This document shows, one piece after another, positions 21,492 through 41,942 of a stretch of 64,000 nucleotides of DNA. The DNA comes from Ruminococcus sp. (GTDB lineage Bacteria > Bacillota > Clostridia > Oscillospirales > Ruminococcaceae), in the NCBI GenBank assembly GCA_029055625.1, contig JAIDCY010000027.1:226-64225 (forward strand). The letters run 5' to 3'. Within the stretch, counting starts at the first letter, position 1. Every line of letters starts with the position of its first letter. A program made the translations under genes and the position numbers. The notes under the pieces are model-generated. The model made no database searches. It was not told where the DNA came from and saw only the letters and a list, made by a program, of their open reading frames with translations.

Positions 21492-21505
21492 ACTGAATAT
21501 ATATT

Positions 21506-22235: not shown

Positions 22236-22264
22236 TTGACAGCTTAAAAAATATAGTTTATAAT
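22236..22264 (+). promoter_or_regulatory. Consensus sigma-A promoter of the double-GTPase operon
   Basis: TTGACA (22236-41), 17-nt spacer, TATAAT (22259-64). Confidence 0.7.
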
Positions 22265-22378
22265 AAGAATATGGCTTGAAAAATCAGTTTAAAAGCAGAT
22301 TTTATTATTGTAACACATATATTATATAATACATTCAGATACATACTCACGATAAATAAGAAAGTTGGATTACATTTT

Positions 22379-23935
22379 ATGCAGAATTTTAATTGCTTTA
22401 TACTCGGTTCGGAAAATTCCGGCAAATCCTCGTATATAAATCAGTTCGTCAATGGTATTGCCGATTCCAGATTCTCACCGTTTCATATCGAACACAATAA
22501 TATTCAGACCGTGAACGGTAAAGAAAATCCCGGCGCTTATTACAATAACTCTTTTAAAGTCGACGTATATGAAAAACTTCTGTCTTTAAAAACACAGGAT
22601 ATTTTTTCATTTTCCATAAGCGACTATGCCGGAAAGATTATTGAAGAAAAAAATGAACAGTCTGAATCATATAAAAAACTTAATTCAGATTTACATGATG
22701 CTGATTTCCTTATCGTTATGCTTGACGGCGATTTATTTTCCGGTGAGAGCAAGGAAAAAACAGTTAAAAAAATAAAGAGAAAATGTTCAAGACACTATAC
22801 CCCTCTTATATCGGTATACTCGGAAAACAAACTTTCGCCGGAAATAACATTTGTTGTTACAAAATGTAAAAACGTATTCGCTACCTATGACGAACAGTCC
22901 GCCTTAAATATCGTGAAAGAATCATTTGACGGTGTTTTTGTTGAAGATAACGACAATCAGCCACAGATAACATTTATTGAAAATTTTCAGGAAAGCGGTT
23001 TGTTCATTCCTCTTGCCACCGCTATGAAACATTTCATAAACATAATCGGAAATCAACTGAATGATAACCTCGACGAACAAAACAAAAAGTTACAGGATGC
23101 CATAAATGATAATGAGGACTTCCTCCGGGAACAGGAAGACAGACTACTTCTGAAAAATCCCTTTAAAATGAAAGAGGCACGGGAAAAAATATCAAGCCTG
23201 AAACATCAGATACAATGTAATGAAAATATACGTTCCGAAAGCCGGACACAGGAATTTATTTCTGATATGAACAATATTCTTTCCAGAGAACAGGAAACAA
23301 ACAGAAAGTTCATTGATTCTATATTCAATCCGGAAACCACTCCTGCTCCCGCAACTACTGAAAAGGATTCTTCATGTACCGGATGTATCGCAATTATTGT
23401 ATTACTGATAATTATAATATTTATTCTTGTAAAACTGGTCAGCTGTGGTGCGAACTTCATCAAGAACAAAAAGGATAAACCTGATAATACATCTTCACAG
23501 ATTACACAGAATATTGATAAAAAAGCGTTATATTTCGATGATGACAATATGCTTGTAATCGATACGGATATTATCGGACAGCCACTGAAAAAGGTAAAGA
23601 AAAAGCTGGGTAATGAACTTGATGTTGAACCGGAATACAATGTCACATCATATGATGAACCCGTTTATAACTATAAATTTCTTCATAATGACGGATTTCT
23701 TCAGTTTACTTTTGACGAATCATATGACAGACTTTTAAAAGTTCAGTTTTTCGATTACCGCTCATTCGATGATGACGTATATGATACCGCCTGCGAAATG
23801 TACGGCAAACCGACAGAACACGAAGGCTCATACACTGTGTTTAATGTAGATGATAACACCGATTATGGTATCATGGAAGCCACTGCCGACGGAGAAACGG
23901 TATTTGTACAGGCGTATGCGTATACAGAAGATTAA
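22379..23935 (+). CDS. TRAFAC-type GTPase-like protein with coiled coil, TM helix and extracellular C-terminal domain
   Basis: G1 GSENSGKS, G3 DYAG, degenerate G4 VVTKCK; TM CIAIIVLLIIIIFILV; paralogous to the next gene. Confidence 0.7.
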   Translation: MQNFNCFILGSENSGKSSYINQFVNGIADSRFSPFHIEHNNIQTVNGKENPGAYYNNSFKVDVYEKLLSLKTQDIFSFSISDYAGKIIEEKNEQSESYKKLNSDLHDADFLIVMLDGDLFSGESKEKTVKKIKRKCSRHYTPLISVYSENKLSPEITFVVTKCKNVFATYDEQSALNIVKESFDGVFVEDNDNQPQITFIENFQESGLFIPLATAMKHFINIIGNQLNDNLDEQNKKLQDAINDNEDFLREQEDRLLLKNPFKMKEAREKISSLKHQIQCNENIRSESRTQEFISDMNNILSREQETNRKFIDSIFNPETTPAPATTEKDSSCTGCIAIIVLLIIIIFILVKLVSCGANFIKNKKDKPDNTSSQITQNIDKKALYFDDDNMLVIDTDIIGQPLKKVKKKLGNELDVEPEYNVTSYDEPVYNYKFLHNDGFLQFTFDESYDRLLKVQFFDYRSFDDDVYDTACEMYGKPTEHEGSYTVFNVDDNTDYGIMEATADGETVFVQAYAYTED

Positions 23936-23967
23936 AAAATTTTAATATAAATAAAGGAGTTTTTAAA

Positions 23968-25008
23968 ATGGCAGACACAAGATTTACAGCTTTAGGACTT
24001 TCCGGAAGCGGAAAAACCTGTTACGTTCTCGGTATGTATTACGAGATGGTAACAGGCATGAAAGGTTTCACCCTCAAGACAGCTAATGAAACAGCATCAA
24101 AACTTGAAGACTGGATGGATAAACTCGACGACGAAACAGGGGCTGACAGATTCCCTGCCGGTACAGGTCTTACGGAAGTTTCAAACTATGCTTTTGACAT
24201 GAACTATCAGAACAAATACGTAATGAGTTTCGACTGGATGGATTACGGCGGACGTACTCTCAGGGAAAAGGAAAAAAATCCGCAGGCTTTTGCAGAACTT
24301 CAGAAATCTATCAAGGAATCAACAGCTCTTTATATCTTTATCGACGGTGAGCTTCTCTGTGAGGAAGAAACGGAAGAAAAGATTAAAAAGGTTAAAAGAA
24401 AATGCGGACGTATCATAAATCCGTTTATTACTGATTTTATTCAGGAAAACGGCTCAAACCTTCCGCCTATCGTATTTGTTATCACAAAATCCGACCTCTG
24501 CAGAGAGTACATAAAAAGCACCGGGGAAGTATATGACGTTATTTCCGAATCTTTCAGCAGTGTGTTCGGTAAGGACGGCAGATGTTATATAACCACCGTT
24601 TCACTCGGTGAAGATATTGAGGAAGAAGACGGCGAAGCAGACCCGATAAACATTCAGATTCCCTTCTTTATCGGAATATATCATGAATTTCTCAATATAT
24701 GCTATGGTATCAAATATCAGATTGAAGAGGATGAAAGGGGTCACCGTGAGGCAATAAACAGAAATCAGAATGAAATCGCACGTCAGAACAACAGATGGTT
24801 CTTCACTGACTATGACGCTATTTCACAGGCAAGAAGCAATATCCAGAATGCGGAAGCAAGTATTGCAAATAACAAGGAATACCTTAAATATATCAAAAAA
24901 CTTCTTCTTTCCGTTGCAGGAGAACTTACAAGACTTAGCAGTAATTTCGTACTTATAGAAGGTGGCAAGGAAACAGACTTCTCCGCTGACGAAGCTTACG
25001 AATTTTAA
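23968..25008 (+). CDS. TRAFAC-type GTPase with C-terminal coiled coil
   Basis: G1 GLSGSGKT, G3 DYGG, G4 VITKSD; strong RBS AAGGAG. Confidence 0.8.
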   Translation: MADTRFTALGLSGSGKTCYVLGMYYEMVTGMKGFTLKTANETASKLEDWMDKLDDETGADRFPAGTGLTEVSNYAFDMNYQNKYVMSFDWMDYGGRTLREKEKNPQAFAELQKSIKESTALYIFIDGELLCEEETEEKIKKVKRKCGRIINPFITDFIQENGSNLPPIVFVITKSDLCREYIKSTGEVYDVISESFSSVFGKDGRCYITTVSLGEDIEEEDGEADPINIQIPFFIGIYHEFLNICYGIKYQIEEDERGHREAINRNQNEIARQNNRWFFTDYDAISQARSNIQNAEASIANNKEYLKYIKKLLLSVAGELTRLSSNFVLIEGGKETDFSADEAYEF

Positions 25009-25019
25009 GGAGGTAATAT

Positions 25020-26429
25020 ATGAAAGCATATCCTTTGATTTACAGCAGAACAAAAAATGATGACTTCGTGCCGGATTTTCTGGCACGTCCGGCTGACATA
25101 AACTATGAAACAGCATTGAAATACGTTGGAAATTCCATCGCAAACCTTGATGCATTAAATGGTATAAGATACAATATATTCAGGGTTGATGACTATTGCG
25201 TATATGGTGTTTCATGCAGAACGAAAATACTTTTAAGCAAAATTGAAGAAACTTCCGCATTAAGTCCGGAAGCTGTCGAAAATGCGAAAAACTACCTGAA
25301 AGACTGTAAAGGAAGAAATATCGTCGCATTCATAGGCTTTGCCATACCGGTTACGGAAGCGGTATCCGGAAGTCTGCCTGATATCGAACTTTCCGATTAC
25401 TGGAAAGTATATCAGGAATATCTTGAGCATCAGTGGGAAGATATGCACACACATTCGGAACAGCTCACCACTCCGGAGATAACGACAGGTAAAAAGTCAT
25501 ATACTTCCACGTATAAACCCGATACTGAAAATATTCAGGAAAAGTATATAGTAAAGAAGTTCCGGGAAAGTACGGCATCAGAGCAGGCGGTACTTGACTA
25601 TTTCACAGACAGGATTCTGAATCACAAAGAAGATATATCATTTATTTCTGACCTCGTCTATAAGGCAGACTGGGACAGTATGAATTTCAGTCATGCCTAT
25701 GTATCCGACACGCTTTATAATTCTATCCTGAATTCCGCTAAATCTTTCGCATCTTCAGCTTCTTCTTCCGTTTTTCCGGAAAGTTCACAGAAAACGGTAA
25801 GAAGTGAAAGGTCTCCGAGTGTAGCAGAACAGGCTAACAGCAGAACCCGTCCGGGAATTTACGGCAGACCCTCACAATTCAACATACCTGCTCCACCGCA
25901 GAAACCGACTGAATCAGAAAAAAAATCTGAATCAGGAGGTTTAAAAAAAAATACGGGCATTCATTCCCTTTTTCGCAATATTCCTGATAGTTCTGCTTAT
26001 AGTACTATTGGTCGCACGAAAGCCGGAGACTCAACCGGAAACAGCCAATACGCCACCGGAGAATCAATCAGAAGCAGTAAATACGCCACCGGAGAATCAA
26101 CCAGAAGCAGTCAATTCGAATCCGGAAGCGTAAACAGAAACAGTCCATACGGAAACGTACCCAAAGTAAGTCCATACGAAACCGGAAACACAGAAAAAAA
26201 CAGTGCATACTATGAACAACTCATCTGTGACAACATCCGGAAATACGAACAATACATCATCCGGGACAGAAACCAATGTATAATTTCTCCCGAAAAAGAT
26301 ATGGGATTCTATAAGTTTATACTAAAAAATGTCGGCTATATGCATTCCGCAAATCAGGTTAATTATCAATATATTTCAAAGGTATCTTTTTCACCGGAAA
26401 AACAACAGATAACAATTTTATTTAAATGA
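25020..26429 (+). CDS. Hypothetical GTPase-associated protein; probable alternative membrane-anchored C-terminus in the +1 frame
   Basis: RBS AAGGAGG; globular N-terminal ~240 aa, then a low-complexity linker; A9 tract at 25943-25951 precedes a +1-frame TM helix. Confidence 0.65.
   Translation: MKAYPLIYSRTKNDDFVPDFLARPADINYETALKYVGNSIANLDALNGIRYNIFRVDDYCVYGVSCRTKILLSKIEETSALSPEAVENAKNYLKDCKGRNIVAFIGFAIPVTEAVSGSLPDIELSDYWKVYQEYLEHQWEDMHTHSEQLTTPEITTGKKSYTSTYKPDTENIQEKYIVKKFRESTASEQAVLDYFTDRILNHKEDISFISDLVYKADWDSMNFSHAYVSDTLYNSILNSAKSFASSASSSVFPESSQKTVRSERSPSVAEQANSRTRPGIYGRPSQFNIPAPPQKPTESEKKSESGGLKKNTGIHSLFRNIPDSSAYSTIGRTKAGDSTGNSQYATGESIRSSKYATGESTRSSQFESGSVNRNSPYGNVPKVSPYETGNTEKNSAYYEQLICDNIRKYEQYIIRDRNQCIISPEKDMGFYKFILKNVGYMHSANQVNYQYISKVSFSPEKQQITILFK
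26047..26112 (+). repeat. Two tandem 33-bp repeats
   Basis: AATACGCCACCGGAGAATCAA(T/C)CAGAAGCAGT(A/C) twice; reads NTPPENQ(S/P)EAV in the +1 frame. Confidence 0.9.
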
Positions 26430-26446
26430 AAGGAGTTTAAAAAATT

Positions 26447-26824
26447 ATGGGTGATTTATTCGGTTCATACCGTAGCGTAGGGGCGGAAAAAAGAAACCGT
26501 TCTTTTGAATCCGTTTCAGCATATGAAGAGCATTATATGAAACTTCTGAAGAAATATCTGAACGAAATCAATGAAATTGAAGAAATGATGCGGAATCTGC
26601 GGAAAGAACGTCAGGATTTCTATATGAAACAGCTCCCCGCAATAAAAAAGGCTATGGTTGAAGATGATGTACTTTCCGCCGACTGTAAGGCACAATGGCT
26701 CACCGAACTGCAAAACAATATGGAACGCAGTTTCCAGATAAGCGAATCTCTCATACAGCATTACATAACAAAAAACCTTGAAGAGTTCAAACAGGCTCTG
26801 AAAGATGAAGTAAACAAGGTGTGA
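26447..26824 (+). CDS. Hypothetical helical/coiled-coil protein
   Basis: RBS GAAAGGAG; E/K/Q-rich helical composition. Confidence 0.7.
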   Translation: MGDLFGSYRSVGAEKRNRSFESVSAYEEHYMKLLKKYLNEINEIEEMMRNLRKERQDFYMKQLPAIKKAMVEDDVLSADCKAQWLTELQNNMERSFQISESLIQHYITKNLEEFKQALKDEVNKV

Positions 26825-26827
26825 AAT

Positions 26828-27325
26828 ATGTTCAGAGAAGAAAATTACCGTTTCTGCGTAAATTCCGCATTGCAGATTATGCAGGAACAAAGAAAAAAAC
26901 TATTCAATGACTGTATACACTCTGACCCTACAATATATAACGGTCTTCATTCTTCAGAATCTCCTGCATTATGCCGTCTTTACTTTCAGGCTTACTTCGT
27001 CGAATGGGTTGGTATGCACTGGGAAACCATGTTTGAAATTCTTAAACGCCATAGTGAATACTCTGCGGAACAAAGAAGAAAAATGATACTGTTTTTTGCG
27101 GAATATCTTTCCGAATTAATATCTGAATGCAGTCAGAAAGGATTGCTTGCAAATCTCGCCGTTCCCGAACTTCTGAAAGTTCAGAAAAAACAGCTTAAAG
27201 AAATGATTCAGTTTTCGGGAAAATGGGAACATAACAGCAACAAATTACGTGTTCAGATGAAAAAGGGTCATGAACAATATATGAAACTTATCCGGGAAGC
27301 GGAAGCAGAAGCAGAATCTGAATAA
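26828..27325 (+). CDS. Hypothetical helical protein
   Basis: Starts 3 nt after the previous stop; 165 aa. Confidence 0.65.
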   Translation: MFREENYRFCVNSALQIMQEQRKKLFNDCIHSDPTIYNGLHSSESPALCRLYFQAYFVEWVGMHWETMFEILKRHSEYSAEQRRKMILFFAEYLSELISECSQKGLLANLAVPELLKVQKKQLKEMIQFSGKWEHNSNKLRVQMKKGHEQYMKLIREAEAEAESE

Positions 27326-27349
27326 AACCAAGAAAGGATTAAAAAAAAT

Positions 27350-28111
27350 ATGCTGGAAATGTTTGATAAACTCGATGACATAATATACGCACCGGTTAAC
27401 GCTGTATGCAACTGGGCTCAGGAACCTCTCAGAAAATTTGACCACAAACGAGAGATGGAAAAAATGCAACGCTCCGCTGACCTTCAGATGCAGATGAAGC
27501 AACAGGAAGCAGAGTTACAGGTATTCAATCAAAGGCAGGCAGTGAAAATAGAGGCTGACAGAAAACGTTGGGATGCGGAACTTGAAGCTATGATAGCTGA
27601 CCAGGAAGACAAACGCCGTGACAGACTTGTTGAATCTATCAAGAATTATCAGATTGACCTTGGAAACGCAATAAAGGATATTGTGGAAAGTCTCGGAGTA
27701 ATGTCCCTTGAACTTAGAAGTCGGGCAAATAATCTTCTCATAGAAAAAACAAGGGAATACGAAAAAATACAGGAAGAAGCTATGGATAAATCAATGAAAC
27801 GAATGGAGGATATTCAAAATCGTTTCGCAAATAACGAACGTGTACGTTTAATGATGGAAGATTCTATTATGAATCAGATGAACACTATTGTTGACGCTGC
27901 CGCTAATTTAATAAAAGAACTTTCCGAGGATTTAAAACATCTTAATATGAATACTGACAGCCTCATGCAGATGGGTATGAAAAACATTGATAAATATTTA
28001 TCCCCTATGATACAATCCGCAGGTGTTGCAAACACCAGTATTCAGAGCGAGTACAACAAAAAACAACTGGAAGAAAAACCCGTTATTGACGCTGAATTTG
28101 CAGAAGTATAA
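27350..28111 (+). CDS. Hypothetical long coiled-coil protein
   Basis: RBS GAAAGGA; E/Q/K/M-rich helical sequence; followed by a terminator. Confidence 0.7.
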   Translation: MLEMFDKLDDIIYAPVNAVCNWAQEPLRKFDHKREMEKMQRSADLQMQMKQQEAELQVFNQRQAVKIEADRKRWDAELEAMIADQEDKRRDRLVESIKNYQIDLGNAIKDIVESLGVMSLELRSRANNLLIEKTREYEKIQEEAMDKSMKRMEDIQNRFANNERVRLMMEDSIMNQMNTIVDAAANLIKELSEDLKHLNMNTDSLMQMGMKNIDKYLSPMIQSAGVANTSIQSEYNKKQLEEKPVIDAEFAEV

Positions 28112-31178: not shown

Positions 31179-32369
31179 ATGAACGAATACGAAGAAATAC
31201 AACGCTGGCTGGACGAACAGGCAAAAAATTATATTCCGACGGAAGAAACGTTAAAGGATTACGGGCTTACAATGAAAACTGCATCAGAGCAGGCGGACTT
31301 ATACAGGGAAAAATTTTTCCGGTTATTGCGGAAATACGGCATCATCACAGATAATATCAGTGTAATAATTGCGGAAGTTGACAGACTGATATGTGAAACT
31401 CAGAATGAAGATTTACTGTTTGTCTATACTGCACTTGCAACGGAAAAAGGTTTATTTTTCGGCGATATGTACGACGAAGAGCAGAAAATTATTTGCTGGC
31501 TGAAACAGTGGGGAAATGCGGAAAAATTTTCAAAAGCGATACAGAATGATAAAATCTATAAAAAACGGCTTGCAGGTCTGCAAGGATTTGTTGAGAATAA
31601 GGATTCTGAAGAACCGGATACGGAAGAGCAGACGTTATTATATCAGATGTCGATAGAACACGATTTCCTTTATAAAGGCAGAAAAAGTAAATTTTATCTG
31701 GAGAATATCGGCGAACTTGTCCGGAAAGTAAATTCAGTTCCGGAACTGAAAGTTATAAAGCCTTATGTATACAGTGCGATACTCAGCCGGAAACACAATC
31801 TTATGATTAACAGAAAAAATTACAGTCCGAATTTTGCGAACATCTTTGAAAGAACGGATTACAGGATAAAAACGGATAACGGCAAAAATTTTGACACTTA
31901 CCAGTCGTATATAGAATTATATGACCACCTCCGGCGGTTTTATCAGGACGAAGCAGACATTGATTTTTCCGATTATTACTTTTCACATCTTAATAATCTG
32001 AGTGAGTGGTATTACGAAAACTGTGAACCGAACGAAGAAATCCCCATGACACTTGAACGTATGGCGAAACATTATATAAATCATATAAATATTAAAATTC
32101 CGGAATATATAGAAAAAAAACAACCATTACTCGAAATAGTATATGACAATATCCTGGCGAATGAAACGAAATGGTCTGATATGATAAATGACGTTCAGAA
32201 CGGCGGTAATATCAGTAATTACTGCGAAAGACTTTATAAAATGGCAGATGGTATGAGACTATGCGGGAACAGAAAAACCGCCTTGAAGTATGCGGAACTT
32301 CACCTGATTGTATTTATGGAGGAAATAAACCACCGGATTCTGACGAATGGTTATAAAAATTTTCTGTAA
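31179..32369 (+). CDS. Hypothetical protein, paralog of 40884..41942
   Basis: RBS GAAAGGAG; shares NF..YQS..ELY.HLRR.Y, FSDY.F..L..LSEWYY.NCEPNE.IPM with the paralog. Confidence 0.75.
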   Translation: MNEYEEIQRWLDEQAKNYIPTEETLKDYGLTMKTASEQADLYREKFFRLLRKYGIITDNISVIIAEVDRLICETQNEDLLFVYTALATEKGLFFGDMYDEEQKIICWLKQWGNAEKFSKAIQNDKIYKKRLAGLQGFVENKDSEEPDTEEQTLLYQMSIEHDFLYKGRKSKFYLENIGELVRKVNSVPELKVIKPYVYSAILSRKHNLMINRKNYSPNFANIFERTDYRIKTDNGKNFDTYQSYIELYDHLRRFYQDEADIDFSDYYFSHLNNLSEWYYENCEPNEEIPMTLERMAKHYINHINIKIPEYIEKKQPLLEIVYDNILANETKWSDMINDVQNGGNISNYCERLYKMADGMRLCGNRKTALKYAELHLIVFMEEINHRILTNGYKNFL

Positions 32370-32440
32370 AAACAGTTCCGGAAAAAATAAAATCCGCTGT
32401 GACAATAATTTCACAACGAATCTTTATTTTTATTCCGCTT

Positions 32441-34162
32441 CTAAAACCGGGAGGCATATATAAGGCATCTGTTATTCAGAGAACGATATGACGCCAATAA
32501 ATCCTGTTTATTGTTTTCCGACATCATAATTATATCCCTGAATTTTATTTTTCCGGCGGAATATTTCAGCAGGAAACTTTCACATTCACTGAAAATATAA
32601 CTGCCATAAGTGAGCAAACCGTTCTTATATTCCAGAAGACTAAACGTTCTTACAGGATATAATTCAAGCAGTTCATCATCTGTATAATCATTGTTTCCGT
32701 GACGATATATTGAAATAATTCTTTCAATATAATTTACAATATGTTCCTGTTTAAGATAATAATCTTTCCATAAAGAAGATATATTCAGACGTTCACCAGC
32801 CTTGAAGAAAATACGTTCAACATCTGCTTTAACGGCATTCCGTGACAACATTCTTATTTTTTCCTTAAGCATTTCATCAAATGTTTTCTTGAAAGAAATC
32901 AGTTTTTCATATTCCATTGATTCAGGCTTCATCAATGGCATCTGCATGGAATATATACAGGTGTTTTCGTCAACTCCGGAATATTCAAGATTATAATCAG
33001 CCGGATTTAAAGTAATAGGTGTGTGCGGATAAGGTGCAAGAAATACGGTTTTACACTCAAACATTCCCTGACCTGCTTCAAGCATTTGTTCCGCAAGCTT
33101 CATACTTTCCGATATTGATTCTTCCGTTTCGTATGCACCGCCAACGATAAAATTTCCGACCAGCCGGGGCAGTCCCGCATTTTTACAGATATTCACAACT
33201 TCTAAAATCATATCCCTGTCGGTTTTCTTATTATACGCTTCAAGTACAGTATTACTTCCGCTTTCAATACCAATCTGCAAACCAATCATTCCGGAATCAA
33301 CCATAATTTTTACCATTTCCGGATTTTTAGCTATATTTGAAGTATGCCCCTCACAATACCAGAATAACTTTCTTTTTTTCACTTCCTTACAAAAAGCTTC
33401 AACCCGTCTGAAATCAAGAGTGAATGTATCATCATATATATTCAGATACTTTAATTTATGGTTTTCGGAAATGGCAAAATCAATTTCAGAAATTACGTTT
33501 TCTATGGAGCGTAAACGCACTTTTTTAGTATTTGCCCCCTCGTAACAGAAAGCACACCGGAAAGGACAGCCCCGACCCGTAATGATTCCGAAATCAATTT
33601 TATTTCTGAAATCTGAACCGATACATCTTTTCCGGCTTGGGAACGGTATTTCATCAAGATTACAGAAAGGCTTCGCAAGGGGATTTTCATGATAAATATT
33701 ATTTTTATCAATATAACGCAGACTCTGTACCTGCTCCAGCGGAAGTATATTATCAATAATACAGCTCAGCAACTGATATTCCGGAATTTCCCCCTCTCCC
33801 TCTATAACAAAATCACAGCCTGTTTCACGCAGAAAATCTTCTTTCAGGGCAACAGCTTCAGGACCTCCGGCAATTGTATATACATTATAAGTCTTTTTAA
33901 TCCATTCAATCAGATGCTTCACAACTGAAAGATTATCTGTTGCTGTATAAAATCCTATAACAGGTACGGAATCTTTTTCTATTGCTCCGGAAATTATTTC
34001 TTCACAGTCTCCGGTAGTTCCGGAATAAACCATCGCCTTGAATCCTTTGGTTTCAAGATATGATGCTATGGAATGCTGACCCAGATTATCAAACATATGA
34101 GAAGGAATGCGTTCAACGTTCATAAGAAGAAGTTCATACTTAGTGGCATCCGTAATTTTCAT
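32441..34162 (-). CDS. Cobalamin-dependent (class B-like) radical SAM protein
   Basis: B12-binding N-domain (IASYL...IAGGPEA...GEGE), GRGCPFRCAFC, IYDDTFT, GIESGS, FIVG...ET.ES; extra C-terminal ~100 aa. Confidence 0.9.
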   Translation of the reverse strand: MKITDATKYELLLMNVERIPSHMFDNLGQHSIASYLETKGFKAMVYSGTTGDCEEIISGAIEKDSVPVIGFYTATDNLSVVKHLIEWIKKTYNVYTIAGGPEAVALKEDFLRETGCDFVIEGEGEIPEYQLLSCIIDNILPLEQVQSLRYIDKNNIYHENPLAKPFCNLDEIPFPSRKRCIGSDFRNKIDFGIITGRGCPFRCAFCYEGANTKKVRLRSIENVISEIDFAISENHKLKYLNIYDDTFTLDFRRVEAFCKEVKKRKLFWYCEGHTSNIAKNPEMVKIMVDSGMIGLQIGIESGSNTVLEAYNKKTDRDMILEVVNICKNAGLPRLVGNFIVGGAYETEESISESMKLAEQMLEAGQGMFECKTVFLAPYPHTPITLNPADYNLEYSGVDENTCIYSMQMPLMKPESMEYEKLISFKKTFDEMLKEKIRMLSRNAVKADVERIFFKAGERLNISSLWKDYYLKQEHIVNYIERIISIYRHGNNDYTDDELLELYPVRTFSLLEYKNGLLTYGSYIFSECESFLLKYSAGKIKFRDIIMMSENNKQDLLASYRSLNNRCLIYASRF

Positions 34163-35240
34163 TGTATAATTCCTCTCGTTTTTCTTTCAGTTTATTTTCA
34201 ATAAAAACAAGCCCGTCGGTCATGAGATACCTGAAAAATTTTTTATAGTCATTACATAAAGGGTTTCTGTGGCTTCCGTCAATCCATACCATATAGGGAC
34301 AGCCACCGTTACAGATTTTCTGGAATTTACACGCCGAACACTCCGGACGGATTTCCGGCTTGTACATTTTATTTTCAAAAGGCAGTGAAATATTATCAAC
34401 GTTTATATTTCCACCGCTGAAAGCCTTGTTATCACAGAATCTTCCGCAAGGATAAATTTCACCTTTATAATCAATTGCTATGAAATTACAGAAACAGTTT
34501 CCCGAAAAAGTACACTCACCGTATGGTGAATGACTGAAAATCTTTTGTGAAAGGCTTTCGACCGGCTGAAAAGGAATATCAAGCTCATTTGACATGATAT
34601 ACTCATATACTTTTATAAGATATTCCGCATACTGTCCGGATTCAAGAAGAATTTCACTGTTATTTTCCGCTTCACCGCAATTAATCAGCGGATTTATTTT
34701 TATCGGGATGTGATGTTCTGCGAATTTATCAAGGAAAGAAAAATCATCTGTTACATTTGCCCCCACTACCATAAGAGCGGAAGCAGGTATATTTTCTGAT
34801 TTCATTTTCAGGATATTGTTAAAAATAGTATCATAAGTAGGTTTTCCGTTTATATCCGTCCGGGTCTGATTGTGAATATCAGCAGAACCGTCTATACTTA
34901 CGCCGATTCTGAAACCGTATTCTGAAAAAAGATTAATGAATTTATCATTTATATGATAGCCGTTACTCTGCATACGCCAGCAGAAAGTAATATCCGGATA
35001 TTTTTCATTTATCCTGCTGATGGCTTGTTCATAAAATTCACATGGTACTATTGTAGGTTCTCCGCCATGAAAAATAATATCAACCTTGTCTTCATTTCCC
35101 GCCCTTGAATTTTCCACACAGAAACAGATGTTTTTATATAGCTGTTCTTCTGAAATTATATGAAAGTCCGATTTGTCACCGACACAGCAATATTTACAAC
35201 GCATATTACAGCCATCCGTAACTTTAAGAATATAGTTCAT
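34140..35240 (-). CDS. Radical SAM/SPASM domain protein (peptide/protein maturase type)
   Basis: CNMRCKYC, FHGGEP, QSNG, GVSIDG...HN..R; SPASM G.IYPC and CSACKFQKICNGGC (Cx2Cx5Cx3C). Confidence 0.9.
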   Translation of the reverse strand: MNYILKVTDGCNMRCKYCCVGDKSDFHIISEEQLYKNICFCVENSRAGNEDKVDIIFHGGEPTIVPCEFYEQAISRINEKYPDITFCWRMQSNGYHINDKFINLFSEYGFRIGVSIDGSADIHNQTRTDINGKPTYDTIFNNILKMKSENIPASALMVVGANVTDDFSFLDKFAEHHIPIKINPLINCGEAENNSEILLESGQYAEYLIKVYEYIMSNELDIPFQPVESLSQKIFSHSPYGECTFSGNCFCNFIAIDYKGEIYPCGRFCDNKAFSGGNINVDNISLPFENKMYKPEIRPECSACKFQKICNGGCPYMVWIDGSHRNPLCNDYKKFFRYLMTDGLVFIENKLKEKREELYNENYGCH

Positions 35241-35245
35241 AATTA

Positions 35246-37012
35246 TTATCCCTTCATTGCGGAAAGTCGGGAAACTGCGGTATCAATGAGTTTTACCGCT
35301 TCCTGATTGAGATTCACAACCGGACGGAAATACATATCAATAAGTTCGTTAATCTGTACTTCCACGTTATCCTGAAAATATACGTTAATCTGTGAAGTTA
35401 TAGCATCCCTTATTGCAGATTCATTAACGCCGGTATTGATATTATGATGTTTTGTTACCGTCCGGGTATGGTTTTCATAATATTCTTTTCCGAAAAAAGA
35501 ACCGATATGTTCAAAAAGACCATGTGGTGGACGTGAACGTCTTTCCACAAATTGCTGTTGATAGGAAATACTTTCCGTCTGCATTTTCATTTCCGGAATA
35601 CTGAAACCGTTTTCCTGCATATTATCAAAAATACGTGTGGAATTGCTTGTCATGAACTCGGAAAGTTCCCTTTCACAGATAGTGCGTGAGGATTCGGAAA
35701 TAATTTTTACAATATCGCCGGAAATTCTGCCGGAACTTATACTTTTGCCACCGTCTCCTATTTCCGTACGATACCGGCTGATTAAATTCTGAATTTTCGC
35801 CATTGAATCCGATTTTATCATAGTACGTATGCTTTCTTTTTTCGTGTCAAGTTCCTGTATCTGCCTGTTAAAATCGCTTATATTTTCATTGAGTGTCTTT
35901 TTAAGACCCATAAGCGATTCCGTATTTTCATTACCTATAACATCAGTAATCATAGTATTAATACGTTTCATAGGGGTTGCAAGCTTCATCTGTCCTGCGT
36001 CGTTCTTTGTGATTTCAATTAACTTATCAAGAAATTTATCGATATTACTTTGTCTGTACTGTTCGTCGTCACCGTTTCTGAATGCTTCAACGGCGAGCTG
36101 TTTTGATATTGTCATAATACTGCTGTACTGAAGAATATCATCAAGATTCTGTTCACGTATACTATCAAGCAGATAATCTTCAACGTCCTTTCTGTCCTTG
36201 TCACTTTTCGCCATCAGAACTTTGATTATATTTCCGTCGTCGTCGCAGTCTTCGTCGTAAGTGTCGGACATAGTGACGAGAAGAAGAACAGGTTTTTTCA
36301 TTTCTGCAAATCTTTTCATTTCAAGAAATTCCTGCTGAGTTCCTGCCGCATCTGAACTGCACGTAAAAATAACGAGGTCTGAATTCTGAATATATTCCTT
36401 TGCAAGTTCTTCATTTTCCTTCGTTATACTGCCTATACCGGGGGTATCAAACCATGAAAGACCGCCTATTGTAAAATACTGAATAGTACTTGTAGTTTCC
36501 GTTGAACCCACGCCGAATTCACAGTCTTCTTCCGAAAGAGTTTCCAGCTTGTTGCTTGTTGTGATTTTTCCCCTGTCCTCAACGGTGACAACGGGCTTTA
36601 TCTTATCGTATTCAGAAGAAATACCGAGTTTTTTTATCTCACTGCCCATTATAAAGTTACCGAGCGAGCTTTTACCGGACTTCACTTTTCCGAATACGGA
36701 AACAACAAATGTTTTTTCATGTCCTTTGATAAATGACATTCCTTTTCCGGATTCAAGTATTTTTGCCGTACCTGTTTTTATGCACTCGTTCAGAACGGAA
36801 GTAACATTCTTTTTAAGAGATGCAATATTCATGCTGTCTTCAGGATTGGCGGAATTTCTGACGAGATTGTTTATCTGCTTTTCCATATCGGAAAAAATCT
36901 GTTCTATCTGTGCCTGCTTATCCTCGTATGCTTTTATTCCCTGCGAAAACTTTTCTTCTGAATCAAGCATTGCACTGACAAAATTATTGACGCTGTCTGT
37001 TCTGAATGACAT
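35246..37012 (-). CDS. Bacterial dynamin-like GTPase
   Basis: G1 FGKVKSGKSS, G2 region GSTETT, G3 DTPG, G4 VTMSD, long helical C-terminus with a hydrophobic GLFEHIGSFFG loop. Confidence 0.8.
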   Translation of the reverse strand: MSFRTDSVNNFVSAMLDSEEKFSQGIKAYEDKQAQIEQIFSDMEKQINNLVRNSANPEDSMNIASLKKNVTSVLNECIKTGTAKILESGKGMSFIKGHEKTFVVSVFGKVKSGKSSLGNFIMGSEIKKLGISSEYDKIKPVVTVEDRGKITTSNKLETLSEEDCEFGVGSTETTSTIQYFTIGGLSWFDTPGIGSITKENEELAKEYIQNSDLVIFTCSSDAAGTQQEFLEMKRFAEMKKPVLLLVTMSDTYDEDCDDDGNIIKVLMAKSDKDRKDVEDYLLDSIREQNLDDILQYSSIMTISKQLAVEAFRNGDDEQYRQSNIDKFLDKLIEITKNDAGQMKLATPMKRINTMITDVIGNENTESLMGLKKTLNENISDFNRQIQELDTKKESIRTMIKSDSMAKIQNLISRYRTEIGDGGKSISSGRISGDIVKIISESSRTICERELSEFMTSNSTRIFDNMQENGFSIPEMKMQTESISYQQQFVERRSRPPHGLFEHIGSFFGKEYYENHTRTVTKHHNINTGVNESAIRDAITSQINVYFQDNVEVQINELIDMYFRPVVNLNQEAVKLIDTAVSRLSAMKG

Positions 37013-37024
37013 ATATTTCCCTCC

Positions 37025-37477
37025 TTAATCTTTACCATCAAGACCGTATTCAGTCATAAGCTGATTACGCATAGTGCCCAGACTACTTATAGCATATTCA
37101 ATATCTTTAAGTTGCTGGTCAAATCCGGCGGTTTCAGCCTTTATTTCTTTATCATAGTCAACATTAATTTTGTGAGTTCCGGCTGACTGTATTTCATTAA
37201 GTGAAACATTTTCAACATTGGAATCGGATATACTACCCTTAGAAGTTCCGGAAAGATATTTCTGTAACTGATTATTTTTAATATCAATCAGGGTTCTCTT
37301 TGCGGATTCATATTCATTTCTTGCGGCTTCCTGTCTTCTGCGACGACGTTCTGCGGCATCGCTGTAATCGCTGTGGTTACTGTAGTTTCCGTAATCGCTG
37401 TGGTCGCTGTAGTCGCTGTGGTCACTGTGAGCGATAGCACCTATTATAGCACCACCAACTGCTATCCAAACTGGCAT
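37025..37477 (-). CDS. Small protein with N-terminal hydrophobic helix, eight (H/Y)-x-(D/N) repeats and a coiled coil; candidate radical SAM substrate
   Basis: RBS AAGGAGG; MPVWIAVGGAIIGAIA then HSDHSDYSDHSDYGNYSNHSDYSD then a charged helix. Confidence 0.8.
   Translation of the reverse strand: MPVWIAVGGAIIGAIAHSDHSDYSDHSDYGNYSNHSDYSDAAERRRRRQEAARNEYESAKRTLIDIKNNQLQKYLSGTSKGSISDSNVENVSLNEIQSAGTHKINVDYDKEIKAETAGFDQQLKDIEYAISSLGTMRNQLMTEYGLDGKD
37358..37429 (-). repeat. Eight degenerate 9-bp coding repeats
   Basis: CACAGCGAC/TACAGCGA(C/T)-like units encoding HSD/YSD/YGN/YSN. Confidence 0.9.
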
Positions 37478-37494
37478 ATTTTATTTCCTCCTTG

Positions 37495-38394
37495 TTATAT
37501 ATTGTTATATTCGTCTCTTTTGCTTTTCACGATATTGTACTGATTCCTGAACATCTCAAATACAGATTTCCATTCATTTTTTAAAGAATCGTACTTTTGT
37601 TTTATTCTGTCGACAACGTTCTGTTTTGTTTCCCTGATTTGTTTTTTCCTGATGTCAAGTTCTGTCTTGCTCTCCTTACAGAGACTGTATAGCTGTTCTG
37701 CAATAAGGTAATCCGAAACGGCAGAATAAGCATCTGCTTTTTTTATTATCGCCTCCTTTATTTCCGGGATTCTGCTCATTTCAATCATTTTGTCCTTGCC
37801 TTTTTCCACACCGGTAAGATAACGCTTGACAGAGATTTCATAGAAATCAATATCACAGCCAACGGCTTCTTTTACCATACGGCGAGTTTCTTTGATTGTA
37901 TCCGGATATGATGGGTCAGACTGTCTCTCATCAATCCAGCTACATACAAACATAAGCCTTGCCTTTTTCTCACGGTTACTGCTCATTCTTCCGGCGATGG
38001 ACTGAAGCCATTTATACTCCGCATCATTAAGCATACCGAGTTTTATATTATGAATCATGATGATAATATCAGATTCAAGGATTGAATTTAATGCAACCTG
38101 TGTATCTTCTTCGTTTACGTCAATACCGGGTGTATCGACAATATCGATTTTGTCCGTAAGACTTTCTATGTCCTGACTTTTTGTAACTCTCGCCGCACCT
38201 GTTGCGAAACGTTCGGACGAATCGATAAGAACATTGAACAGACTGCTTTTTCCGGAACTTACAAGTCCGGTATTTGCGATTTTAATTTTTCTTTCAGTAT
38301 TCATACGTGAGTTTATACTGCTCCATTTGTACGAAAGTTCCTGAGAAAGATTTTCTTCCATAATAGTTAATAAACGTTCTGATATTTTTATCAT
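37495..38394 (-). CDS. Short dynamin-like/TRAFAC GTPase
   Basis: G1 GLVSSGKSS, G2 region GAARVT, G3 DTPG, G4 region CSWID, C-terminal helix. Confidence 0.75.
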   Translation of the reverse strand: MIKISERLLTIMEENLSQELSYKWSSINSRMNTERKIKIANTGLVSSGKSSLFNVLIDSSERFATGAARVTKSQDIESLTDKIDIVDTPGIDVNEEDTQVALNSILESDIIIMIHNIKLGMLNDAEYKWLQSIAGRMSSNREKKARLMFVCSWIDERQSDPSYPDTIKETRRMVKEAVGCDIDFYEISVKRYLTGVEKGKDKMIEMSRIPEIKEAIIKKADAYSAVSDYLIAEQLYSLCKESKTELDIRKKQIRETKQNVVDRIKQKYDSLKNEWKSVFEMFRNQYNIVKSKRDEYNNI

Positions 38395-38398
38395 ATTA

Positions 38399-40000
38399 TC
38401 ACCTTATCCTGTTTTTTATTGTTAAAGCCTTTGTTTTAAAAGTGTTAAGCTGACGGCATAAATCAAGCAGTAAATCCATTTCCTGCTGATTTCTGTTAGC
38501 AGAAGCAAGAATACACGCTTCCGCTTTTTCAAATACGGCGGAAAGCTGAGAGGTCATAAGGGTTCGCATATCAACACGGATTTTATGACTTTGTGTTTCA
38601 ACGGAAATTCTTATATCCTGCCTCCGCCTTGCTTCATTGAAGGCATTTTCTTCAGCTATCCGGTTTCTTTCCCTTGCTTCCTCCTGAAGACGCTTGAATT
38701 CTTTAAGTTCCTTCTCTTTTCTTGAACCGAAAATTTTTGAAAAAATATTCACAATGAGAAGAGGATTCGGAGCAGGTGTGGGGGAAATTATATTACTTGC
38801 CACTCCGGTTAAACTGCCGAGTATATCTGTTCCGGAAATATCGTCATCATCTTCCGGCAGGCTGAAATCATTGTCTGTATGTTTTTCAGGACTTCCTTCA
38901 AAGTCCACCATATCGTAACCGGAAATATCACCGGAAATATTATTTGTCGTGATTCCCGAAAAATCAACCTGTGTATACTTTGCGGAAAAATATGACATAA
39001 GATTTCTGACGTTCTCACTGTACATATTTTCAAATTCCCTGTACATTGACTGTATGTTTTCTTCCCAGCTGTTATTGTTTCTGCTGTAAGCGGATTCAAT
39101 CAGTGTTCTTTCATATCTGCTTACCATCATATCAACATTATACGGTATCTCTTCCATGAATGAGTTGCGTTTTGCCCTTATGTCGGAAAGATAGGAACTG
39201 AAAACATCATTAATATCAGGATTTGTTTTTTCTTCCGCATCGGCAAGCATTTCATCAAGTAAAGCGATAAGATTATTTACAGGAGCAGTATATATATGCA
39301 TAGCAGACCTTGAATGAAGAAAATGAAGTATTCTGTCTTTAATCATAGGGAGATTACTTAATTCAACAAGTTTTTCTTTCTGTTTCAGCTGACCCATAAG
39401 GGCACGCTTACCGTTTACTGCTATAGTATCGAATAAGTTTTCTATATGATGATTACCGCTTACTTTCTGAAGATTTTCAATAATCTTACACTTTATGCTG
39501 TTGATGTTTTCACTGTTCCTGATGTCGTTTTCACTGTTTTTGTCATTGATAACAATAATAAAAGGTTTTCCGGTTTTAATAAGCCTGTACATATTTTCAT
39601 AGTTCCGGATGCTTTCAAATCCGCCTTTTGTACTTATAACATAGAGAATAACATGACAGTCTGCAATATTATCTTCCGTAATCTTCTGATGTTCAACAGG
39701 TGCGTCAACCCCCGGACTGTCTATCAATGTATAGTCGCCGTTGTCGTATTCATCTATTCTGTATGTTGTGGGACAGTCTCTCATTTCAGCGACTTCTTTT
39801 CCGATAATAGCGTTAATGAGCGTACTTTTTCCCGCATTGTAGATACCATAAACCATAACTTTAGGTTTTTCGGCAAGAATAAGCGAAAGAACTTCTTTAT
39901 TTATTCTGTTCAGATAATCCTGTTCATTATTACCATTTAATTTAAACCATTCAACAACTTCTGATGTCAGTTGTTCAATATCATATTTAATATCTGACAT
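38399..40000 (-). CDS. Bacterial dynamin-like GTPase (LeoA-like)
   Basis: G1 YGIYNAGKST, G2 region DCPTT, G3 DSPG, G4 region VINDK, helical stalk; ATG at 40000 after GAAAGGA. Confidence 0.8.
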   Translation of the reverse strand: MSDIKYDIEQLTSEVVEWFKLNGNNEQDYLNRINKEVLSLILAEKPKVMVYGIYNAGKSTLINAIIGKEVAEMRDCPTTYRIDEYDNGDYTLIDSPGVDAPVEHQKITEDNIADCHVILYVISTKGGFESIRNYENMYRLIKTGKPFIIVINDKNSENDIRNSENINSIKCKIIENLQKVSGNHHIENLFDTIAVNGKRALMGQLKQKEKLVELSNLPMIKDRILHFLHSRSAMHIYTAPVNNLIALLDEMLADAEEKTNPDINDVFSSYLSDIRAKRNSFMEEIPYNVDMMVSRYERTLIESAYSRNNNSWEENIQSMYREFENMYSENVRNLMSYFSAKYTQVDFSGITTNNISGDISGYDMVDFEGSPEKHTDNDFSLPEDDDDISGTDILGSLTGVASNIISPTPAPNPLLIVNIFSKIFGSRKEKELKEFKRLQEEARERNRIAEENAFNEARRRQDIRISVETQSHKIRVDMRTLMTSQLSAVFEKAEACILASANRNQQEMDLLLDLCRQLNTFKTKALTIKNRIR

Positions 40001-40049
40001 ATTAACTATCCTTTCATAAATTTGTAACAATTAAAATTGTCCATATGTC

Positions 40050-40079
40050 ATTATAACACTGAAAGTTATATTTTGTCAA
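40050..40079 (-). promoter_or_regulatory. sigma-A-type promoter of the dynamin/radical SAM operon
   Basis: Minus strand TTGACA (40079-74), 18-nt spacer, TG-t-TATAAT (40055-50). Confidence 0.65.
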
Positions 40080-40159
40080 CCCTTAAAGTATATTTATTTT
40101 CCGGAAAATTTTTATATAATAAAATTAGTATTATGTAAAAAAACGGAGGATTTCAGAGA

Positions 40160-40495
40160 ATGAAAAAAATAAATTATCATGAAATGGGCAACAGAATACG
40201 AAAACAAAGAGAATTTTTAGGGTATACAAGAGAACAACTGGCGGAAAAACTGGAAGTTTCCACAAAATTCTGTTCTGATATTGAACTGGGTGTGAAAGGG
40301 GTATCAATTCAGACACTTTCCCGACTTTCTGAAATTCTCTGTCTTCATACAGATTATATACTTTTCGGAAGTGAAACCGATAATTCTTCAGAACTGGAAA
40401 TGCTGTCTGTTCTTGTCAGAAGATGTCCTGAAAAATCAAGGAAAGAACTGATTACTATTATAAATGCATATATCAGAGCGGTTTCTGATGATTGA
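40160..40495 (+). CDS. XRE-family HTH transcriptional regulator
   Basis: MG.RIRKQRE.LGYTREQLAEKLEVS..F.SDIELG.KG.S; divergent from the dynamin operon. Confidence 0.9.
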   Translation: MKKINYHEMGNRIRKQREFLGYTREQLAEKLEVSTKFCSDIELGVKGVSIQTLSRLSEILCLHTDYILFGSETDNSSELEMLSVLVRRCPEKSRKELITIINAYIRAVSDD

Positions 40496-40745
40496 CTGAT
40501 TCTCTTATTTCCTCTTCCGAAAAGTGAGGGTTCAGCCCTAAAATCCTGTAAATTTCAATCAGAATAAAAGCGTCTGTTTTCTGAATATGACGTATCTGTT
40601 CTGCTTTCTGAGTTTCACCGATTTTTCTGAGCCATATTTCAAGCCCTCCGCTTTCATAACAATAAAGCAGTTCTTCAATGCTGAAACATCTTTTTAAATC
40701 TTCTATACTGCATAGTTCCTCACCGTTCATAAACATATCCTTCAC
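40473..40745 (-). CDS. Hypothetical 90-aa protein
   Basis: RBS AGGAGGTG; NG....SIEDLK..F..EELL..Y..G.L..WL pattern; 3' end overlaps the XRE gene 3' end. Confidence 0.6.
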   Translation of the reverse strand: MKDMFMNGEELCSIEDLKRCFSIEELLYCYESGGLEIWLRKIGETQKAEQIRHIQKTDAFILIEIYRILGLNPHFSEEEIRESVNHQKPL

Positions 40746-40883
40746 CTCCTGCGATTACATAATATCATAATTATATACATCTTACAATATAAAACAATTC
40801 AGGAAAAAATTTTTATTTTTCTGTACTGTTTTATATTGACAAACAAAAAAGCGTGTACTGTCTATACAATACACGCTGTAATT

Positions 40884-41942
40884 TTATATGATATATTCTG
40901 CAATATCAAGCATTTTTTCCCTCAGTTCATATTCCGCATCACAATATATCTGATATTCCGTTTCTTCAAGTGTTTCATAGTCTTTATAACTCATAATCAC
41001 AGGAAATGATTTCGACATTAACGTTTCAATTTTACTTCTTGTACTCATCGGAATCGGTTCATTTGGTTCACAGTTCTGATAATACCATTCACTGAGCGGA
41101 CTGAGATTTGCGAAACAATAATCTGAAAATGAGATGTCAACTTCCGGAGAATCCTCATAATATCTCCGGAGATGTTCATATAGTTCAAGTGCAGACTGAT
41201 AAGCATTGAAATTTCTTCCGTTATCCTTATAGATATTATATTCCTGATATTTCAGCACGCTTTTAATATTCGGGATATAATGTTTACGTTCTGTCATAAG
41301 AGTAGTACGCCGACTTAAAACCGCAGAAATAATATATGGTTTCAATGAACATAATTCATTATGACTGTTTACCTGATACATAAGCCCGTTTATATTTTCA
41401 TAATAAATCCTGCTGTTTTTTCCTTTATTAAGAAAATTATGCTGTAAAGTCATATGCAGAATATCGTCCAGTTCTTCTTCATACCCGGAAACAGTATTAT
41501 ATGGGTGTTTCAGTATCTTAAAAACTTCATGTAAACGTTTTTTCATAACGCACTGTTCATAAAGAAAATCCGTTAAATTATCTGAAAATTTTTTCTGTTC
41601 CGTCCAGTTGCGGATATCCTGTTCTGCCGTACGTTCGCCACGGTGCATATCCATTAAAACCCCACGGTCTGTGATAACCACAGAGTATATATAATGCAAA
41701 TCCTTATTTTCCGGATTTTTTTCTATCAGATTAATCAGGTCAATACAAACGGAAACAATATTATCCGGACATATCTTATACTTTTCCAGTAAATCAAAGA
41801 AGTTCTTTCTGTATTCATTTACTTTATTTAAAGCTTCATTAAAAGTCATATCATTATTTTTAAGAAAATCTTTGAAATTAACATATTTTTCCGCCTCTTC
41901 ACATAAATATTTAAAAATTTCATACTCTAAATCATAATTCAT
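40884..41942 (-). CDS. Hypothetical protein, paralog of 31179..32369
   Basis: See the shared motifs listed for 31179..32369; start overlaps the upstream gene. Confidence 0.75.
   Translation of the reverse strand: MNYDLEYEIFKYLCEEAEKYVNFKDFLKNNDMTFNEALNKVNEYRKNFFDLLEKYKICPDNIVSVCIDLINLIEKNPENKDLHYIYSVVITDRGVLMDMHRGERTAEQDIRNWTEQKKFSDNLTDFLYEQCVMKKRLHEVFKILKHPYNTVSGYEEELDDILHMTLQHNFLNKGKNSRIYYENINGLMYQVNSHNELCSLKPYIISAVLSRRTTLMTERKHYIPNIKSVLKYQEYNIYKDNGRNFNAYQSALELYEHLRRYYEDSPEVDISFSDYCFANLSPLSEWYYQNCEPNEPIPMSTRSKIETLMSKSFPVIMSYKDYETLEETEYQIYCDAEYELREKMLDIAEYII

Follow-up and report, generated by a model that had tools for sequence, protein, structure and literature searches.

A six-gene operon of Ruminococcus joins three dynamin-like GTPases, a triplet-repeat protein and two radical SAM enzymes

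Introduction

Why should three dynamin-like GTPases be encoded together with a small repeat-bearing protein and two radical S-adenosylmethionine (SAM) enzymes? The question is raised by six genes at positions 32441–40000 of a 64-kb stretch of DNA from a rumen Ruminococcus sp. (assembly GCA_029055625.1, contig JAIDCY010000027.1, positions 226–64,225 of the forward strand), referred to throughout as the window. A preliminary description of the locus had proposed a membrane-remodelling, possibly anti-phage machine with a post-translationally modified subunit. We have established that the six genes are one unit, inherited together as a fixed operon under a repressor-type regulator, and we consider it probable that the repeat protein is both the substrate of the radical SAM enzymes and a partner of the GTPases. 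Coordinates are those of the window, except where they follow the handle of another locus (L001 and so on).

Six genes inherited as one operon

All six open reading frames (ORFs) are intact and lie on the minus strand. In the direction of transcription they encode G1, a dynamin-like GTPase of 533 aa (38399–40000); G2, a short GTPase of 299 aa (37495–38394); R, the repeat protein, of 150 aa (37025–37477); G3, a dynamin-like GTPase of 588 aa (35246–37012); a radical SAM/SPASM enzyme of 366 aa (34140–35240); and a B12-binding radical SAM enzyme of 573 aa (32441–34162). Successive genes are separated by 4, 17, 12 and 5 nt, and at the last junction the SPASM gene and the B12 gene overlap by 23 nt. 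G1 starts at the ATG at 40000, with the ribosome-binding site AAAGGA, and the starts of its orthologues agree. The operon promoter (40050–40079, minus strand) reads TTGACA-18 nt-TATAAT with an extended −10 TG, and is the sole 12/12 match to the sigma-70 consensus in a scan of 32000–41000; directly 3' of the B12 gene stop stands an intrinsic-terminator-like hairpin with a T-run (32389–32424, minus strand). A divergent plus-strand gene (40160–40495) encodes a 111-aa XRE-family helix-turn-helix (HTH) regulator, with a Pfam HTH_3 match above cutoff (E 1.2e-8) and PADLOC matches to HTH_VI and control-protein models. Both the packed minus-strand genes behind a single consensus promoter and the divergent XRE regulator had been noted in the preliminary description, and both were borne out.

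Between the divergent promoters lies an inverted repeat with 13-nt arms that are 92% complementary (40109–40141), a candidate operator for the XRE protein. At locus L013 a 111-aa ORF occupies the position equivalent to that of the XRE gene, the likeness being one of length and place alone. On the far side of the regulator, an ORF of 87 aa (40473–40736, minus strand) with a strong AGGAGGTG ribosome-binding site overlaps, by about 20 nt at its 3' end, the 3' end of the convergent XRE gene; its product has no family match in Pfam or PHROGs.

Beyond the window, the same six genes recur in the same order in about 25 independent loci with enough DNA, at 30–90% identity; for this comparison ORFs were called at each locus and compared with the six window proteins. 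With the G3 alignment as pattern, a search of 185,579 species genomes gave 16 loci, including a Ruminococcus flavefaciens metagenome-assembled genome (MAG; 86% identity), one Riflebacteria MAG, and loci in Lachnospiraceae, Clostridium, Otoolea muris, Filifactor villosus, Roseburia and Blautia. The R homologues found by a word-based search all lay within the identical gene order, and metagenome contigs supplied further cassettes with matching order. In related loci the B12 gene always stands directly after the SPASM gene, and the six orthologues co-diverge, with identities of 82/75/66/88/81/82% in L006 and 30/40/36/39/35/37% in L001. The preliminary description had let its reading depend on whether the radical SAM genes accompany dynamin homologues elsewhere, and in every related locus examined they proved strictly linked to the GTPases and R. 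Considering the single perfect promoter, the single terminator, gaps of no more than 17 nt, the co-divergence and the recurring gene order, we treat the six genes as one unit.

Of 37 species in the genus of the window, 2 carry the cassette; it is found in none of the 24 other families of the order (0/24), and otherwise it is scattered through the Clostridia, a distribution which indicates that it is accessory and horizontally spread. What surrounds the fixed core varies. The regulator is of the XRE family in the window, and a WYL (WYL-WCX) regulator lies beside the cassette in most other loci. The 3' end takes three forms. After the B12 gene there may be nothing (the window, L013, L002 and L006), a pair of genes, X1 and X2, or a gene for a patatin-like phospholipase. 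The X1/X2 form (L001:8908–11163; also L014–17, L019, L020, L025, L028, L111 and L115) makes up one clade; X1 (about 286 aa) has a Gly/Ala-rich hydrophobic centre between coiled coils, X2 (about 465 aa) has transmembrane-like segments, and neither has a Pfam or PHROG match. Among 13 aligned G1 orthologues, a hydrophobic Gly/Ala-rich insert in G1 occurs only where X1/X2 are absent. The patatin gene either adjoins the end of the B12 gene or overlaps with it, an arrangement seen in four independent loci (L113:14578–15447, L018:14575–15456, L021:6645–7523 and L027:4595–5446), its products being 33–39% identical to one another.

The repeat protein

R begins with a Gly-rich hydrophobic N-terminal helix (residues 1–16), continues with an array of triplets (residues 17–40) and the sequence AAERRRRR, and ends in a helical/coiled-coil part. 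The array, HSD HSD YSD HSD YGN YSN HSD YSD (37358–37429, minus strand), consists of eight exact (H/Y)-x-(D/N) triplets, so that the repeat described beforehand is present in full. At the DNA level the periodicity of 9 bp is merely degenerate (73% matches), which argues that the repeat is held by selection on the protein and is not the product of recent slippage.

A census of 142 triplets from 22 R homologues gave Tyr (81%) or His (17%) at position 1 (98% together), mainly Ser (69%), Asp (14%) or Gly (13%) at position 2, and Asp (63%) or Asn (35%) at position 3 (97% together). Homologues carry four to eight triplets, always preceded by a Gly-rich hydrophobic N-terminus of 16–20 residues and always ending in YSD, followed by AAER and an Arg run. 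The N-terminus of R is the only strongly hydrophobic segment within the six-gene core. More distant members of the family keep this architecture, with Arg or Lys sometimes at triplet position 3.

No family in Pfam, NCBIfam or PHROGs matched R, and PADLOC returned a marginal match at chance level (CRISPR-Lon, E 0.0034). The word-based search gave four clusters and under-reports the family; a later profile (HMM) search found 247 representatives at 50% identity, nearly all of 125–165 aa and matched end to end. R proteins thus have near-constant length; their C-terminal helical part is conserved, and the YSD–AAER junction is invariant.

Radical SAM enzymes and their predicted chemistry

Both enzyme assignments of the preliminary description hold. 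The SPASM enzyme has CxxxCxxC at residues 11–18 and a complete SPASM motif of seven Cys (C249-x10-G-x4-C265, C301-x2-C-x5-C-x3-C314 and C329), every one of them invariant in 16 orthologues. Its profile matches the anaerobic sulfatase maturase (anSME) 4k36 in the PDB (E 3e-42), which places it in an anSME-like clade; its best NCBIfam matches are to DynA, the dynobactin maturase (182 bits), and anSME (169 bits), and further ones are to the cyclophane formers YhhB, GrrM/OscB, FxsB and AmcB. The B12 enzyme exceeds the Pfam cutoffs both for an N-terminal B12-binding domain (PF02310, 45.7 bits, cutoff 32.1) and for Radical_SAM (PF04055, 93.2 bits, cutoff 29.5). None of the six operon proteins has a model in NCBIfam.

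By score-gap analysis and spot checks of loci, the cassette SPASM enzymes form a distinct clade, scoring 211–839 bits against 150 bits or less for the next matches. The nearest outgroup, P0180 (30% identity), has the same NCBIfam match profile, and its gene directly follows that of a 56-aa peptide composed of a leader and eight Y-x-D motifs. Because P0180 adjoins a YxD peptide, the enzyme lineage goes with (Y/H)-x-D substrates in two contexts that are unrelated to each other.

The hallmark of triceptides is an aromatic residue at position i followed, at i+2, by a residue that is conserved. According to a review (PMC11002830), the bond made by YxdB runs from Tyr C3 to Asp C-beta, and the one made by YhhB from Tyr or His to Arg C-beta. 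Given the aromatic-x-D/N triplets of R, the matches of the enzyme to three-residue-ring formers and anSME, and the YxD peptide beside the nearest outgroup, we infer that the SPASM enzyme forms three-residue cyclophanes on the triplets of R. By a similar comparison the B12 enzyme may add a second mark to R, likeliest by C-methylation. Both proposals are made by analogy, since neither enzyme reaches the cutoff of a curated family. An anSME-type conversion of the repeat Ser to formylglycine was rejected as the principal reading, position 2 of the triplet being variable and positions 1 and 3 conserved.

The locus of P0180 is of interest in its own right. At L117:5773–7963 (and also in L118), the 56-aa YxD peptide (MNKRIEEFIELHNTNDDCQYSDSTYHDEYHDYSDSTYHDDYVDDRYDDRYTDGRDY) is followed by the P0180 SPASM enzyme and then by an APH-family kinase, an unannotated, RiPP-like arrangement (RiPP, a peptide made by the ribosome and modified after translation). 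To judge from its genes, it resembles a triceptide pathway of the YxD type, possibly with phosphorylation as a further step.

Three dynamin-like GTPases

That the operon encodes three dynamin-like GTPases, as had been proposed, is supported by both family and fold. Pfam signatures of Dynamin_N and MMR_HSR1 are found in the three paralogues G1, G2 and G3, and the PADLOC models LeoA and LeoBC match all three over most of their length (E 1e-16 to 1e-27); that library has no curated cutoffs, and a LeoA match is counted here as distant membership. For G1 the scores are 53 bits (Dynamin_N) and 55 bits (MMR_HSR1), with PADLOC matches to LeoA (E 1.4e-27, residues 10–344 against model positions 22–375 of 559) and LeoBC (E 8e-26); G2 matches MMR_HSR1 (39 bits) and LeoA (E 6e-16), and G3 matches Dynamin_N (41.6 bits) and LeoBC (E 3.9e-22). 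The G3 family comprises at least 320 clusters (90% identity), for which the fullest annotation is ‘dynamin family protein’.

Because sequence searches of the PDB with the GTPases gave only generic G-domain matches (Der, Era) or none, G1 and G3 were modelled with AlphaFold2 (AF2) from orthologue alignments (pLDDT 79.5 and 78, respectively) and compared with the PDB by Foldseek. The G1 model matched Cj-DLP1 (5oxf, E 1.4e-8) first and LeoA (4aur, E 2.1e-8) second, and also BDLP; the G3 model matched the Cj-DLP pair 5oxf/5owv best (E 6e-8), and also IniA, BDLP and mitofusin. Bacterial dynamins rank top in both searches, in full-length alignments that span about 600 columns (E 1e-8 to 1e-6), at identities of 10–14% and TM-scores of 0.25–0.35, low values of the kind expected for elongated, hinged proteins.

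In both models a helical neck/trunk flanks the G domain. G1 is modelled as a G domain, a helical bundle and a single C-terminal helix of about 120 residues, with a hydrophobic Gly/Ala/Pro-rich insert of low confidence at about residues 380–420; G3 as an N-terminal helical hairpin, a G domain, a helical stalk and a C-terminal helix, with a long beta-hairpin (residues 477–529) bearing an aromatic tip. G2 has a G domain and a C-terminal helical tail. No segment of G1–G3 rises above the hydrophobicity threshold and none of the three has a clear transmembrane segment; the G1 insert, for all its low model confidence, and the aromatic tip of the G3 hairpin are candidates for membrane contact.

The P-loop, the switch I Thr and DxxG are invariant among the orthologues of all three GTPases, and the G4 Asp is kept in G2 and G3. 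Specifically, the invariant elements are the P-loop, switch I Thr and DSPG in G1 (13 orthologues); GxxSSGKS, Thr71, DTPG, WxD155 and SxK190 in G2 (15 orthologues); and the P-loop, DTPG and TxSD250 in G3 (15 orthologues).

Relation to known systems

The anti-phage system Eleos, which consists of LeoA and LeoBC, was formerly called ‘Dynamins’ (Millman et al., 2022) and takes its present name from bioRxiv 10.1101/2022.12.12.520048. Like Eleos and the LeoABC dynamins of enterotoxigenic E. coli, the cassette has several co-operonic dynamin-like GTPases and is accessory and horizontally spread; by PADLOC, G1 and G2 are LeoA-like and G1 and G3 LeoBC-like, and the second fold match of G1 is LeoA itself. 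In contrast to the two genes of Eleos, the cassette always has six (three GTPases, R and two radical SAM enzymes); its GTPases are distant, at the 10–14% identity of the fold alignments, and its hydrophobic anchor sits on a separate protein, R. Side-by-side paralogous bacterial dynamins that act as membrane hetero-oligomers (Campylobacter DLP1/DLP2, 5owv/5oxf; B. subtilis DynA; Nostoc BDLP) include the best fold matches of G1 and G3, but have neither a modified accessory subunit nor radical SAM partners.

With the triceptide maturases (XncB, OscB, MscB, YxdB, HaaB and YhhB), enzymes that form three-residue cyclophanes (3-CyFEs; Nguyen 2020; Sugiyama 2022; reviewed in PMC11002830), the cassette shares an anSME-like SPASM enzyme beside a tandem aromatic-x-X3 substrate, Tyr-x-Asp being the YxdB motif. 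The two differ in that the cassette enzyme falls below the cutoff of every named 3-CyFE family, and R is a conserved protein of 130–150 aa with a hydrophobic N-terminus and a coiled coil rather than a leader–core peptide; moreover, the cassette has no protease or exporter, has an obligate B12 radical SAM partner and is embedded in a GTPase operon.

Two defence-related systems offer partial parallels. In HXS (HxsA–D; Li et al., Nat Commun 2026; PMC13128918), an HxS-repeat protein effector that blocks phage DNA entry owes its maturation to a pair of radical SAM enzymes. As is predicted for the cassette, the substrate of the two enzymes is a repeat-bearing protein rather than a small peptide; HXS is a defence system that acts at the cell envelope. 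The repeat is H-x-S there and (Y/H)-S-(D/N) in R; the second enzyme is a SPASM enzyme there and B12-dependent here; HXS has no GTPases, and the cassette has neither HxsD nor a peptidoglycan-binding domain. Membership of HXS was rejected, the SPASM enzyme scoring 70.5 bits on the HxsB model against a cutoff of 370 and the repeat register not being H-x-S. In the VMAP ternary conflict systems, FxS peptide and FxsB SPASM modules have been predicted (Kaur et al., eLife 2020; PMC7159879), which likewise place a cyclophane-type SPASM maturase and a motif peptide inside an NTPase-centred predicted conflict system; there, by contrast, the NTPases are vWA-MoxR/AP-ATPases and not dynamins, a dedicated peptidase processes the peptide, and there is no B12 enzyme.

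The preliminary description knew of no system with this combination, and our full-text literature searches agree, having found no paper in which dynamin, radical SAM and cyclophane/SPASM come together, nor any that joins Eleos with radical SAM. Since the cassette falls outside the two-gene definition of Eleos and below the cutoffs of all named maturases, we file it outside both: it is probably an undescribed relative of Eleos, built from known kinds of parts and a member of neither Eleos nor the named triceptide maturases.

A proposed mechanism and its rivals

We suggest the following course of events. In the cytoplasm, the SPASM enzyme would turn every (Tyr/His)-x-(Asp/Asn) triplet of R into a three-residue cyclophane, an aromatic carbon at position i being bonded to C-beta at position i+2, the linkage that YxdB makes on YxD. 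The 24-residue segment beside the hydrophobic helix would thereby become a rod, rigid, acidic and resistant to proteases, with as many as eight fused rings, on which the B12 enzyme may put its second mark, likeliest C-methyl groups. The Gly-rich helix at the N-terminus would keep mature R in or on the cytoplasmic membrane, and the repeat must face inward, since it is in the cytoplasm that radical SAM enzymes are found. With its basic patch and the coiled coil at its C-terminus, R would dock the long C-terminal helices of the three GTPases, and GTP-driven assembly of the hetero-oligomer would remodel, seal or, in some variants, attack the membrane. This membrane picture fits the interchangeable 3' modules, all of which target or sit in membranes. 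Taken as a whole, from a radical-SAM-modified R and a dynamin-like hetero-oligomer to an Eleos-like anti-phage or conflict role with modular output, the chain is the reading towards which we lean, if only slightly.

The cassette may have an anti-phage role, to judge from its context: a defence island, WYL and XRE regulators, patchiness and swappable modules. The regulators, the patchy distribution and the island setting make an Eleos-like immune role the likeliest. In a bolder version, radical chemistry of the RiPP type would have been enlisted to make a mechanical element of a protein machine: a rigid, acidic, methylated rod of up to eight cyclophanes, at the membrane face of R, would be gripped by a three-dynamin motor with swappable membrane-damaging outputs, supplied by the motor's own hydrophobic inserts, the membrane proteins X1/X2 or a patatin lipase; this version would amount to a new abortive-infection or entry-blocking immunity of anaerobic Firmicutes, which we put forward tentatively and regard as rather doubtful.

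Several observations weigh against the proposed chain. As to the chemistry, the SPASM enzyme scores below every named cutoff (DynA 182/450, YhhB 108/445, GrrM 99/310, FxsB 89/370, XyeB 66/450), and the B12 enzyme is far below those of the NCBIfam models HpnJ, PhpK and ApyD and of the RiPP C-methyltransferase TIGR03975. R is unlike a normal triceptide precursor, its repeats standing near the N-terminus with about 110 residues after them, and its putative membrane anchor is a hydrophobic segment of just 16–20 residues or so without flanking positive charges. In G1 the G4 motif is non-canonical (LND[KR] in the 13 aligned orthologues). The SPASM gene is split into two ORFs at L016:5413–6540 and L111:11762–12898, the split in L111/L112 being seen on many contigs and probably real, so that the cross-link may be dispensable in some cases; at L028:9584–11401 the G3 gene is broken into three ORFs. 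As their reading frames suggest, some lineages carry decaying cassettes in which the cross-linking step is not always retained. Finally, a census of the flanks of 15 related loci, covering 109 ORFs, found WYL, HTH and patatin proteins, UvrD/GajB-like helicases and kinases, mixed with many housekeeping genes; the result is suggestive but does not amount to a statistical test for enrichment in defence islands.

The same R-anchored dynamin machine might serve membrane repair, stress tolerance or envelope remodelling instead of immunity. DynA of B. subtilis and IniA of mycobacteria are dynamins of membrane repair or stress, the GTPase models have IniA among their top fold matches, and many housekeeping genes lie near related loci. 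However, a patchy, horizontally transferred cassette found in 2 of 37 congeners, with recurrent WYL/XRE regulators, interchangeable patatin and membrane-protein modules and a defence-island context, is typical of conflict systems, and we consider a repair function unlikely.

Alternatively, R could be the precursor of a RiPP, cut to release a triceptide-like compound, with the GTPases serving export, immunity or vesicle release. The repeat motif, the RiPP-type SPASM clade and a sister clade that is a classic small-precursor system would suit such a pathway. Yet across the operon and flanks of about 25 loci there is no conserved peptidase or exporter or other transporter, an ABC pair occurring in one locus only; the 125–165 aa length of R, its conserved C-terminal helices and its invariant YSD–AAER junction are unexpected for a disposable follower; and three large GTPases take up more than half of the operon. 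A RiPP pathway is in our judgement improbable, and the preference in the preliminary description for a modified structural protein over a secreted RiPP stands, with R nearly constant at about 130–150 aa and conserved in its helical C-terminal part.

Two radical SAM enzymes working with a GTPase have a precedent in HydE/HydG (radical SAM) with HydF (GTPase), and the G domains are weakly similar to that of HydF. A GTPase-assisted maturation of a cofactor or metallocluster, in which R would be a scaffold or irrelevant, is nevertheless rejected as very improbable: the HydF matches (38.9 bits for G1, the highest, against a cutoff of 325) cover the G domain only, the radical SAM enzymes are of the SPASM/anSME and B12 types and not HydE/HydG, the GTPases have dynamin-like stalks, and no hydrogenase or other client gene is conserved nearby. 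That the GTPase and radical SAM genes are two unrelated units adjacent by chance is hardly credible and effectively refuted by the strict gene order across phyla-level distances at 30–40% identity, by the overlapping or abutting frames, and by P0170, which at 34% identity is at the low end of the SPASM clade and is still inside a cassette.

If the proposed modification and assembly of R are correct, the cassette would link bacterial dynamins, which in Eleos have an immune role, with cyclophane-forming radical SAM enzymes, so far known only from small secreted peptides; the two fields have not yet been joined. R would be the second radical-SAM-matured protein in defence after that of HXS (2026) and the first with a dynamin machine. 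It is a large family, with at least 320 GTPase clusters and about 250 R clusters from gut, rumen and environmental anaerobes. At 7.6 kb the cassette is compact, and R would be a natural multi-site Tyr/His-x-Asp/Asn substrate for the study of processive cyclophane formation.

Genomic context of the window

Two genes bracket the cassette, at 31179–32369 (plus strand) and 40884–41942 (minus strand); they face inward, their products are 40% identical, and three to four copies occur in a few congeners. Their membership of the system was considered and rejected: these paralogues occur without the cassette and are absent from all non-Ruminococcus loci. PHROGs gave no phage family for R, the GTPases, X1/X2 or F1/F2, and a prophage origin is unsupported as a result.

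The window itself resembles a defence island beside a tmRNA gene (21123–21491). After the tmRNA, an operon (the region spanning 21123–28111) encodes two GTPases and then several uncharacterized proteins; one of the GTPases has a match at threshold to the Pfam Double-GTPase families DO-GTPase1/2, and on this pattern the operon is predicted to be a second GTPase conflict system of the island. Elsewhere in the window are a GIY-YIG/DUF4357 gene (57322–58206), a type I restriction R subunit (59628–62837) and DUF5131. A single protein of 1592 aa (47771–52549, minus strand) joins a DEAD/RecQ-like helicase to a UvrD/Rep helicase, and the region around this RecQ–UvrD fusion is AT-richer than its surroundings.

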